A stretch of DNA of 34,871 nt from a virus. The translations under genes and the position numbers were made by a program. The notes beneath the pieces are model-generated. The model was not told the DNA's origin. It did no database searches and saw only the letters and a program-made list of their open reading frames with translations. The stretch lies in UHGV virus genome UHGV-0126185; one strand, given 5' to 3'. Of the stretch, positions 6,598-27,407 are shown piece after piece; position 1 is the stretch's first letter; each line of letters starts with the position of its first letter.

Positions 6598-6618
6598 GTG
6601 TATGGAGCGCAAAGAAGC

Positions 6619-7308
6619 ATGAATCAACAAGACCTGAATTTTGTAAGAATAGAATTGCGCCGCGCGCTACCTGACCTCTCTGGGGGAACAAAAGGGCAGC
6701 TTGAGGCTTTCAGTGAACACCCACCAGCAGACAAAAATGCCACCCCGCGCCGTGGAATTCATCTCGTCGAACTCGAAGGAGAGAAGGGGCCACGCTTTGT
6801 TAACTTGCTTTCCGCGCCACTGTATGTGCTGGAAACACGCAGCCGCCGCAGGCCAATGCCGCCGATAAAAGATGCGGAATTTGAGTCCGCGCCGTGGCGT
6901 AGGGCAGTGTCCGCGCTTAGTGGATACCAGCAGGCCTGGTTGCGGTACTGCTACGGTTTTGACCTTAGCTATAAGCACCAGGTGATGATGTGTGAATACG
7001 TCTGGAAAACTTATCAGAAATGCCTGGGTGATAATTCCCTTCAGGAGCGCGTAGTAAAGAAACTGATTGGCCTGGTATGGCTGGCAGGGCAGGAAATTGC
7101 CGCAACCAGAAATAATGAAACCTATAAAGACTATGCTGGTGCAGCGTTGGCCCGCATGGTTAGCGTTGACCGTTCGACATGGTTGCGTGTCTATTCAGGG
7201 CACTGGGCTGGGTTAAAGGCCGCTTTTACCCAGCTTGATGAATCTGCGTTGGCAATGGCTCTTGAATACTATGAGGAAGAAGAAGCCCTCAAAGTGGCAG
7301 AAATGTGA
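6619..7308 (+). CDS. late-gene antitermination protein Q
   Basis: 229 aa from the ATG at 6619 (an in-frame GTG at 6598 is the alternative start); Q-like Cys/basic content; immediately followed by a promoter-like element and an intrinsic terminator, then the late/lysis genes. Confidence 0.65.
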   Translation: MNQQDLNFVRIELRRALPDLSGGTKGQLEAFSEHPPADKNATPRRGIHLVELEGEKGPRFVNLLSAPLYVLETRSRRRPMPPIKDAEFESAPWRRAVSALSGYQQAWLRYCYGFDLSYKHQVMMCEYVWKTYQKCLGDNSLQERVVKKLIGLVWLAGQEIAATRNNETYKDYAGAALARMVSVDRSTWLRVYSGHWAGLKAAFTQLDESALAMALEYYEEEEALKVAEM

Positions 7309-7395: not shown

Positions 7396-7403
7396 TTTAT
7401 AAA

Positions 7404-7427
7404 CCCGCCAATGAGCGGGTTTTTTTA
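7404..7427 (+). terminator. intrinsic terminator (tR'-like) downstream of Q
   Basis: Hairpin cccgc-caatga-gcggg followed by a T7 run. Confidence 0.6.
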
Positions 7428-7548: not shown

Positions 7549-7740
7549 ATGCTAAATCAGGAAGATATGACAGAAACCGCGAAGGCTGTTTTCAATGAGT
7601 TAAGCGATAAACCAGCAACGGCTGGGGAGATTGCACAGAATACCCACCTTAGCCGAGAACGTTGCCAGCTCATACTCACACAGCTGGTGATGGCGGGTTT
7701 ATCTGATTACCAGTTTGGATGTTATAAACGCCTCCAGTAA
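7549..7740 (+). CDS. small hypothetical protein, possible winged-helix DNA-binding protein
   Basis: 63-aa ORF (alternative ATG at 7567 with aggaag RBS); the segment ATAGEIAQNTHLSRERCQLILTQLVMAGL looks like an HTH recognition helix; first ORF after the late terminator. Confidence 0.4.
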   Translation: MLNQEDMTETAKAVFNELSDKPATAGEIAQNTHLSRERCQLILTQLVMAGLSDYQFGCYKRLQ

Positions 7741-7890: not shown

Positions 7891-8943
7891 ATGAAAAATA
7901 CTGTAAAAATAAACAGTGTTGAATTAATCAACGCTGATAGCCTGCATTACGTCGCCACCCTCCCGGATAACTCTATTGATCTGATAGTTACGGATCCGCC
8001 GTACTTCAAAGTGAAGCCCAACGGCTGGGACAATCAATGGAAGGGGGACGAGGACTACTTACGCTGGCTTGATAGCTGTCTGGCTGAGTATGCTCGCGTT
8101 CTTAAACCTGCTGGTAGCATTTACCTGTTTTGTGGTCACCGACTGGCCTCAGATATAGAGATTATGATGCGTGCCCGGTTCAACGTTTTGAATCACATAA
8201 TTTGGGCAAAACCATCGGGCCGCTGGAATGGATGTAACAAAGAAAGCCTGCGTGCGTACTTTCCATCTACGGAACGGATTTTGTTTGCTGAGCACTATCT
8301 TGGGCCGTACACAGGTAAAGAGGATGTTTACGAAAGGAAAAGCACAGAGCTAAAGCAGCACATTATGACGCCGCTGATTGATTACTTCCGTAATGCCCGT
8401 GAATCACTGGGTGTCAGCTCGAAAGAAATAGCTGAGGCAACCGGCAAGAAAAACATGGCGTCACACTGGTTTGGTGCAAGCCAATGGCAACTACCAAATG
8501 AAGTGGACTATAGAAAGTTGCAGGAACTGTTCACGCGGATCGCTATCGATAAGCACATTCAGCAGAAGCTTGAACATCCTCACCATCAGCTGGTGGCTAC
8601 CTACCAGTCATTAAACCGCAAGTATTCAGAATTGCTGGAGGAATACAAAACCCTCCGGCGCTGTTTCTCTGTTTCCGCTCTTGTTCCGTATACCGACGTA
8701 TGGACGCATAAGCCTGTTCAGTTTTATCCGGGCAAACATCCATGCGAAAAACCTGCCGACATGCTGAAGCAGATCATTAGCGCCAGCAGCAGGCCGGGGG
8801 ATATCGTTGCCGATTTCTTTATGGGCTCTGGTTCAACTGTGAAAGCAGCAATAGAACTTGGCCGTCGGGCGATCGGCGTAGAACTGGAGGAAGACAGGTT
8901 TATACAGACCACCGAAGAGGTGGAAAAACTGAAAAAATCATAA
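7891..8943 (+). CDS. DNA methyltransferase (N6-adenine/N4-cytosine family, DPPY motif)
   Basis: 350 aa; catalytic motif IV DPPY (LIVTDPPYF) near the N-terminus and AdoMet-binding motif I near the C-terminus (DIVADFFMGSGST); no restriction endonuclease partner visible. Confidence 0.85.
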   Translation: MKNTVKINSVELINADSLHYVATLPDNSIDLIVTDPPYFKVKPNGWDNQWKGDEDYLRWLDSCLAEYARVLKPAGSIYLFCGHRLASDIEIMMRARFNVLNHIIWAKPSGRWNGCNKESLRAYFPSTERILFAEHYLGPYTGKEDVYERKSTELKQHIMTPLIDYFRNARESLGVSSKEIAEATGKKNMASHWFGASQWQLPNEVDYRKLQELFTRIAIDKHIQQKLEHPHHQLVATYQSLNRKYSELLEEYKTLRRCFSVSALVPYTDVWTHKPVQFYPGKHPCEKPADMLKQIISASSRPGDIVADFFMGSGSTVKAAIELGRRAIGVELEEDRFIQTTEEVEKLKKS

Positions 8944-9088
8944 CGATCACCACGCTTCTCCGTTGCTGTGGTGATCACCATCTTCAGGCACCGGGAATCA
9001 TCCTTAATTTTTACTTGAACATAAGATCCCGGTTGCCTGATCCCCTTCAATCACACACAGCGCCATCCGAACTATCGGAGGTGAGGCT

Positions 9089-9367
9089 ATGACCAGAATG
9101 AGCACCATTTACAGCAGACTTTCATATGGAACAGGAACCACGCTGACCGGCTGCGGTGTATCAGCGAAGGCATATGCCGAAACAGCTAAAACAGCAAAAG
9201 AGGTGTCCTGGATGTTGGCCGACAGAATTGCAGGGTTAAGCCTGAGCGACTGGGCAATTATTGTCGGTATCTCATGCACTGTTATCACCTGTGCAGTGAA
9301 CTGGTACTACAGGAAAAAGGAAAGGGAGGACCGGCTTAATGGCAATGTCACCAAAGCTGAAGAATAG
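9089..9367 (+). CDS. holin (pinholin-like, phage 21 S21-type), dual-start motif
   Basis: 92 aa; resembles the phage 21 pinholin as I recall it (YGT...[12 protein letters not shown]...[10 protein letters not shown]); MTRM N-terminus gives two in-frame Met starts; 3' end overlaps the SAR endolysin gene. Confidence 0.6.
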
Positions 9368-26909: not shown

Positions 26910-27407
26910 ATGACGATAGAGTATGTTGAAGGAATCAATTATCTTTCCATTGAAGATATAGTTTACATCAACAAGTCTCTGATCGAGACTCAGACGCCAA
27001 ATGAACCAATAGGTGTGCTGAATCCGAATAACCTCAGTTCTTCACAGTCCCGGCCAAGTACCATTCGATATTATGAGCAGACAGACGATATGTTTCGTCT
27101 GTCTGCTGTTCTAATTGAAAGTCTGATCCAGAATCATCCATTCGCAAATGCAAACAAACGCACCGCCATTATGACCGGTTACGTATTCCTGTTGCTGAAT
27201 GGATATGAGCTTACAGCACCTAGCGATGAGGTCGTTACAATCGCAGAGGGTTTGGCTCGTAAGGATTATTCAGTGGATGATCTGGAAAATTGGTTATGCC
27301 ACTGGTCTCGCGAGTATGATTCCAGAACATTATGTGCAACTGGCGGCAATTCGCTACAGGCTCTCGTGGCGACCTCGCAATACATTCGAATCATATCGAA
27401 TAACTGA
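26910..27407 (+). CDS. Doc-family (Fic/Doc) toxin
   Basis: 165 aa with the Doc signature HPFANANKRTA followed by a hydrophobic helix (IMTGYVFLLLNGYEL), matching the P1 Doc motif H-x-F-x-D/N-A/G-N-K-R-T-A; lysine at the position where Fic proteins carry glycine. Confidence 0.75.
   Translation: MTIEYVEGINYLSIEDIVYINKSLIETQTPNEPIGVLNPNNLSSSQSRPSTIRYYEQTDDMFRLSAVLIESLIQNHPFANANKRTAIMTGYVFLLLNGYELTAPSDEVVTIAEGLARKDYSVDDLENWLCHWSREYDSRTLCATGGNSLQALVATSQYIRIISNN

Follow-up and report, generated by a model that had tools for sequence, protein, structure and literature searches.

The space between the DNA methyltransferase and holin genes of this virus encodes a conserved RNA hairpin on the + strand. 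It is linked to the methyltransferase 3′ end and stands in the slot where the lysis leader of related phages carries a terminator. We term this structure hairpin-1. The earlier note on this DNA had described a 9 bp inverted repeat with an adjacent palindrome between the two genes, and had suggested that it might control entry into the lysis genes. The repeat does lie at the entrance to the lysis cassette, where it may have such a role. The entire stretch of 34,871 nucleotides is here called the window.

The list of open reading frames, Pfam matches and a terminator scan identify the window as the late region of a lambdoid prophage, and the features of the region are summarized in Table 1. The methyltransferase has sub-threshold NCBIfam and PDB matches to YhdJ, CcrM and RsrI-type enzymes, and its stop codon (TAA, 8941–8943) lies 2 nt ahead of hairpin-1. 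The 145 nt that separate the methyltransferase from the holin contain hairpin-1 and, beginning 7 nt beyond it, a second stem–loop (SL2). The region from 8700 to 9300 is 97.5% identical to a prophage of Escherichia coli Nissle 1917, and the part shared with phages HK225 and mEp237 is restricted to position 9035 onward.

Table 1. Coordinates and properties of features in the late region of the window
Feature	Position	Strand	Remarks
Q antiterminator	6598–7308		
Strong terminator	7401–7422		~90 nt past Q, at the site where a tR′-type terminator is expected
63-aa ORF	7549–7740		Between the tR′-like terminator and the methyltransferase
DNA methyltransferase, 350 aa, beta-class N6/N4	7891–8943	+	ORF list; PF01555, E = 1e-44
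Hairpin-1 5′ arm, GAUCACCACGC	8945–8955	+	Variable arm among relatives; C-to-U tolerated as G·U
Hairpin-1 loop, UUCUCCGUU	8956–8964	+	Pyrimidine-rich; sequence not conserved
Hairpin-1 3′ arm, GC-U-GUGGUGAUC	8965–8976	+	U8967 bulged; core GCUGUGGUG nearly invariant in relatives
Palindrome, GGTGATCACC	8970–8979		End of the 3′ arm plus ACC; not kept as a palindrome
SL2, 57-nt stem–loop	8984–9040	+	Folds and covariation
C/A-rich box, AUCACACACAGC	9050–9061	+	Holin leader; complementary to the hairpin-1 3′ arm
Hairpin 3	9062–9082	+	Pairs Shine-Dalgarno GGAGG (9077–9081) with upstream CC..UCC
Holin, 92 aa	9089–9367	+	ORF; Pfam Phage_holin_2_3 and Phage_holin_2_1
Lysozyme, then DUF2514 protein in spanin (Rz) position	After holin		

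The inverted repeat is present as described, with GATCACCAC at 8945–8953 and GTGGTGATC at 8968–8976 separated by 14 nt. The perfect palindrome with its GATC is likewise found at the position given. On folding, the stem grows to 11 bp between 8945–8955 and 8965–8976, with a 9-nt loop. The predicted energy is −17.0 kcal/mol in a 55-nt context and −15.5 kcal/mol for the excised 32-nt hairpin, and the z-score of the local fold is only −1.8. The raw pattern occurs at chance frequency. Counting perfect 9-bp inverted repeats with loops of 3–20 nt, the window has four distinct sites (eight register hits), where dinucleotide shuffles give 2.7 ± 2.1 such hits. Nor is there any enrichment in the window of 10-bp perfect palindromes (24 against 36 ± 6 expected) or of GATC (137 against 134). 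As judged by sequence comparison, it is the retention of pairing in relatives, not the raw pattern, that places hairpin-1 above chance.

Methyltransferase homologues were taken from species-representative genomes, and more relatives were obtained from two pattern scans of viral contigs; in the first of these the matches were mostly due to chance, 26 of 120 being true modules. An alignment was made of 31 distinct regions with the same type of hairpin. Standard base pairs occupy 89.7% of the stem cells in this alignment, and this falls to 26–68% when the 3′ partner is slid by one to three columns. At 8946/8975, 12 sequences have A-U, 12 have G-C and one has U-A, and the observed covariation score was reached by none of 500 shuffles, though as the relatives share ancestry the compensatory changes amount to just a handful of separate events. 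The RNAalifold consensus retains both SL2 and the core of hairpin-1, CACCAC/GUGGUG. Pairing survives divergence of the methyltransferase to ~76% amino acid identity, over which the loop and 5′ arm vary.

The non-standard cells indicate which strand is folded. There are 47 G·U cells in the stem against three A·C, and pairing is 89.7% when read on the + strand but 76.8% on the − strand. The excess of G·U indicates that the structure is formed by RNA transcribed from the + strand, rightward, in the direction of the late operon. Pairing on the mRNA strand has therefore been kept through both compensatory and wobble changes, as in a conserved cis-acting mRNA stem–loop, which bears out the suggestion of the earlier note that the repeat might be an RNA structure. 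The note had also proposed conservation in related phages as a check, and here the outcome is divided: the pairing of the hairpin is kept in the 31 regions, but the palindrome and the GATC sequences are not conserved.

Hairpin-1 is closely linked to the gene that precedes it. It begins 1–4 nt past the methyltransferase stop codon, except in relatives from Mixta and Erwinia where one extra hairpin intervenes. In all 47 viral contigs checked that contain this type of hairpin, a methyltransferase homologue (72–99.6% amino acid identity) ends just upstream of it. Approximately 11 relatives bearing the hairpin belong to the genome set that was picked by methyltransferase homology alone, and in these the 3′ arm is mostly GCTGTGGTG, with GATGTGGCG in L003 and GGTGTGGTG in L026. 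We considered whether GCTGTGGTG might be Chi-like, but it differs from the Chi octamer GCTGGTGG. The near-invariance of the 3′ arm is partly explained by an asymmetry of the pairing, since a C-to-U change in the 5′ arm remains paired as G·U and a G-to-A change in the 3′ arm does not.

Two variations were observed downstream of the methyltransferase gene in relatives. In L010 (4054–4127), L019, L045 and L190 the extra hairpin, CGGCTCA...TGAGCCG, separates the methyltransferase stop codon from hairpin-1. The opening of the hairpin-1 5′ arm (CGGCTCAC) recurs in the 5′ arm of this extra hairpin, suggesting a local duplication. In L032, L036 and L047 (e.g. E. albertii) a tRNA-like gene (GGCCCTTTAGCTCAGTGGTGAGAGC...) follows the methyltransferase and replaces the hairpin/SL2 unit, a placement also seen in Stx-type phages.

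What might the hairpin do? The absence of a U-tract throughout the lineage makes it most likely that hairpin-1 works post-transcriptionally. Our best explanation, which we hold tentatively as one that is quite possible while falling short of probable, is that it lies at the 3′ end of the methyltransferase message and serves as a barrier to exonucleases or as a folding insulator. Hairpin-1 would be part of the rightward late or methyltransferase transcript, with SL2 after it opening the leader of the lysis genes. When the long late mRNA is cut, it would block 3′-to-5′ exonucleases and so leave a stable 3′ end on the methyltransferase segment. It would also keep its own G/U-rich arm from mispairing with the C/A-rich leader of the holin. 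We infer the stabilizing or insulating role from the anatomy of the element; its structure, strand, conservation, gene linkage and equivalence to terminators come from the comparisons of relatives. The near-invariance of GCUGUGGUG is not fully explained by the pairing asymmetry, nor by a role as stabilizer alone.

Stem–loops that stabilize segments of polycistronic mRNA are well known, for example the REP hairpins between malE and malF, and the hairpins that define the 3′ ends of Rho-terminated transcripts. Like these REP-type and 3′-UTR stabilizers, hairpin-1 is a stable hairpin lacking a U-tract, placed right after a stop codon in a long operon. In contrast to REP it is not a repeated genomic element, and it is linked to a single gene family. 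A second precedent is retroregulation by lambda tI/sib, where the structure of a hairpin at the end of a gene differs between terminated or short transcripts and those that read through. The likeness is that read-through RNA can here form a longer predicted helix with 9050–9061. However, the hairpin-1 stems are short (11 bp), the alternative helix finds weak support across relatives, and an RNase III site would be putative at most.

Hairpin-1 alone is a routine structural element of an mRNA, and its value is as a marker for the leader. The space between the methyltransferase and the holin is a conserved structured leader, comprising a hairpin or terminator, the covarying SL2, the C/A box and a hairpin that sequesters the Shine-Dalgarno sequence. 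The 160 nt from 8941 to 9100 fold with a predicted −52.5 kcal/mol (z = −4.8), and none of 200 shuffles was as stable. SL2 comprises a lower stem UCAGGCA/UGCCUGA, a bulge of 1–2 nt, a middle stem CGGG(A)/(U)CCCG and an A/U-rich apex. Its cells are 97.5% paired in 37 diverse sequences, with two covarying pairs (U-A/C-G/A-U and C-G/A-U/U-A). It is common to many enterobacterial prophages and phages, including HK225, Gifsy-2 and the Nissle prophage, and is always preceded by either a hairpin or a terminator. A search of 8944–9088 against Rfam 15 with E values up to 10 gave no match, with AgvB, AsxR, isrI/J/K and STnc100 among the families included, and searches of the homologous leaders of L002, L007, L208, L217 and L263 with E up to 0.1 gave none over the hairpin or SL2. 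A leader that is shared by many enterobacterial lambdoid prophages is absent from Rfam, and SL2 may be an undescribed cis-regulatory RNA motif. If hairpin-1 or SL2 affects leakage into the lysis genes or their timing, this would bear on the stability of prophages in both probiotic and pathogenic strains.

The leader also contains a boundary between differing sequences. Near-identity with HK225 and mEp237 begins within the 3′ strand of SL2, indicative of a mosaic joint. The SL2 of HK225 is its own, differing in the apex, and there a canonical terminator replaces hairpin-1. A boundary of recombination or divergence therefore lies inside the structured leader.

Closer to the holin, hairpin 3 is found in both the MFE and centroid structures and is kept in relatives with varied loops. 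The holin has two start codons, Met1 at 9089 and Met4 at 9098 (M-T-R-M). In these respects the leader resembles the sdi and dual-start arrangement of lambda S, hairpin 3 being placed like sdi. By analogy this suggests translational control of the holin.

The 3′ arm of hairpin-1 has a second potential partner. Its sequence GCUGUGGUGAU is complementary to the C/A box over 11 bp with one bulge, in a helix that would enclose SL2. The MFE structure of the leader takes this alternative helix and the centroid takes hairpin-1, and the equilibrium fold of the full leader has a slight preference for the former. Using constrained ensembles, the free energy difference between the alternative and hairpin-1 states is −0.7 kcal/mol for the window and −1.2 ± 3.4 kcal/mol over 31 relatives, with an absolute value of 2.1 kcal/mol or less in 17 of the 31. 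The modeled leader can thus form two mutually exclusive helices of similar stability, which is the property expected of a switch. Such a switch, in which the 3′ arm (8965–8975) pairs with either the 5′ arm or the box, would determine how accessible the holin leader is, and so tune holin translation or the timing of lysis; a possible trigger is a ribosome halted at the methyltransferase stop codon, 2 nt upstream, that melts the 5′ arm. Shuffling the tail makes the alternative state worse by 4.6 kcal/mol on average, and native tails are better than all 12 shuffles in most leaders with a C/A box. Moreover, L026 and the L003 group have arm and leader sequences that differ from those of the window yet match each other (GUGUGGUGG:CCACCACAC and GGAUGUGG:CCACAUCC respectively).

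Other observations weigh against the switch. The C/A box is no less conserved in relatives where an ordinary terminator, not complementary to the box, lies upstream. Cognate arm–leader duplexes are better than non-cognate ones by only ~1.7 kcal/mol, and there is no excess over shuffles in the leaders of L003, L018, L019, L107, L109 and L125, among others. The columns of the alternative helix are paired in 82.9% of cells but have almost no covariation, with a single pair changing on both sides, and RNAalifold passes the helix over. Against shuffles, the helix reaches significance in leaders with a C/A box and in no others. In addition, G/U-rich and C/A-rich sequences pair readily from their composition alone. 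We consider the switch unlikely, a minority hypothesis with weak support. A more elaborate version would join hairpin-1, SL2 and the C/A box into a three-part RNA switch of the lysis leader, coupling translation of the holin to the upstream gene. A ribosome terminating at the methyltransferase stop codon, or slow refolding of the read-through RNA, would free the G/U-rich 3′ arm, and this would then clamp the C/A box, which lies close before the sequestered Shine-Dalgarno sequence of the holin. We regard this version as doubtful. Were it true, lambdoid lysis cassettes would have a cis-regulatory RNA of a new kind, which would tie the timing of lysis to expression of the upstream gene.

The position of hairpin-1 raises the question of termination. 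The stem would serve for a terminator, having 11 bp with −15.5 to −17 kcal/mol on the + strand, 2 nt past the methyltransferase stop codon. The tail would not. Where a terminator has approximately five or more U in the 8 nt after the stem, the tail here is ACCAUCUUC, with three U in 9 nt and none adjoining the stem, the 3′ flank of the repeat reading ACCATCTTC. The terminator scan of the window did not flag hairpin-1. We used the nT term alone for comparison, as the d'Aubenton-Carafa d-score as implemented is distorted by A-U pairs that absorb the U-tract into the stem. The value of nT is 0.24 for hairpin-1 and 0.02–0.9 for hairpins of its type, compared with 2.5–4.5 for terminators at the same site. 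The earlier note had remarked on the lack of a U-tract and thought a simple terminator unlikely. We agree on both counts, as the U-tract is absent both at this locus and in all 38 unique contexts of the relatives, and its absence from every one of them shows that hairpin-1 is not a recently decayed terminator. Termination on the − strand was also considered, there being a T-rich tail 7 nt past the stem, and was rejected on the ground of the wobble asymmetry.

Nevertheless, hairpin-1 stands where terminators stand. Among 90 unique contexts gathered from the sequence ahead of the SL2 box, the element before SL2 is of the hairpin-1 type in 38, a canonical intrinsic terminator with a T-run in 39, and something else in 13, several of which are terminators on inspection. 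Terminators fill the slot in HK225 and Gifsy-2, and in L007, L021, L037 and L043, where the gene before them is again the methyltransferase. The unit of HK225 comes after a leftward gene, so that the terminator is not that gene's own. Hairpin-1 therefore takes the place of a guard terminator in front of the lysis leader. The lambdoid terminators at this site, which are also found in prophages of Salmonella, Enterobacter and Phytobacter, are on the + strand 7–12 nt before SL2, and several of them come directly after the methyltransferase gene, just as hairpin-1 does. Hairpin-1 differs from them in having no U-tract and a longer loop, and its 3′ arm is conserved, whereas the stems of the terminators differ freely between phages.

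On these grounds it could be argued that hairpin-1 is an atypical weak terminator or pause hairpin, which lowers read-through into the lysis genes by polymerase that has not been modified by Q, and is so the functional successor of the guard terminator in the relatives. The position 7–9 nt before SL2, shared with the canonical terminators, and the stable stem are consistent with this, and some relatives (L010 and L203) have three or four U a few nucleotides downstream. Yet the tail with no U adjoining the stem, the low nT, the lack of a call in the scan and the uniform absence of the U-tract all point the other way, and we think such a role rather unlikely.

It could also be that hairpin-1 has no function, and is an inverted repeat that arose by chance and travels with the methyltransferase 3′ end. 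The frequency of the raw repeat equals the chance expectation, and many of the relatives are closely related. Against this, the pairing has been kept down to ~76% identity of the methyltransferase while the loop and 5′ arm have changed, and there are compensatory changes from A-U to G-C together with an excess of wobble pairs specific to one strand. An absence of function is therefore improbable.

The earlier note had further proposed that the repeat could be a protein-binding site, and had named methylation of the embedded GATC as a check. The idea of a protein-binding palindrome or of GATC methylation fails in the comparison with relatives. Where the window has its two GATC sequences at the stem base, relatives have GGCC, GACC, GTCC or GATT, and in place of the palindrome they have GGTGATCATC, GGTGACCACC, GGTGGCCATC or GGTGTCCACC. 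Both features arise incidentally from a self-complementary tetranucleotide at the stem base. A DNA-level site regulating the lysis genes, whether a palindrome bound by a protein or a pair of GATCs sensitive to Dam/SeqA, is thus largely refuted by the comparative data and highly improbable: in its favor are the perfect 10-bp palindrome, two GATCs 28 bp apart, and four occurrences of GGTGATCACC with one mismatch or fewer in the window against 1.05 expected, but neither palindrome nor GATC is conserved, the other three copies, each with one mismatch, are all within structural genes with none at a regulatory position in the window, the 47:3 wobble excess means that the DNA dyad has degraded while the RNA pairing stayed, and the neighboring methyltransferase (PF01555) is of the beta class and not of the Dam family.

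The surroundings of hairpin-1 are known for small RNAs. The region 3′ of PR′ has been described as a hotspot for small RNAs and accessory genes (PMC4104026; bioRxiv 10.64898/2026.05.13.724894). AgvB and AsxR are prophage sRNAs located between Q and the holin, AsxR being antisense to the stx2 late transcript (PMC4104026), and PasA and PasC directly adjoin the holin/lysozyme operon, with PasA cut from a longer transcript (bioRxiv 10.64898/2026.05.13.724894). In relatives, Rfam places sRNAs in the stretch from Q to the hairpin or terminator unit, with isrJ directly after Q and also STnc100 and isrI, in agreement with the published descriptions of the PR′ hotspot. In L263 the isrI match ends ~40 nt ahead of the terminator and SL2 unit. 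AgvB/AsxR, IsrI/IsrJ/STnc100 and PasA/PasC thus share with hairpin-1 the same neighborhood, a 'moron' site 3′ of PR′. They differ in ending in a stem–loop with poly-U, which hairpin-1 lacks, the comparison with PasA/PasC being made by description. An antisense sRNA of the AgvB/AsxR type was rejected for hairpin-1, as strand and architecture are different and there is no match in Rfam.

Some further features of the window were observed. Just past Q, the segment 7339–7428 contains a promoter-like sequence TTGCAA-N17-CATATT, followed ~35 nt on by the strong terminator (7401–7422 plus T7), an arrangement that would give a short PR′-type RNA. In Rfam this segment has only weak similarity to terminator-bearing families, including isrK with E = 2.7, and isrJ occupies the equivalent position in relatives. 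The 63-aa ORF has a weak winged-helix match (DprA_WH, E = 3e-4, under the Pfam cutoff), and its product might bind DNA as a small partner of the methyltransferase. Of the perfect inverted repeats found in the window, the longest lies in the tail-gene region at 27076–27107, where AGCAGACAGACGA and TCGTCTGTCTGCT pair perfectly over 13 bp around a 6-nt loop.
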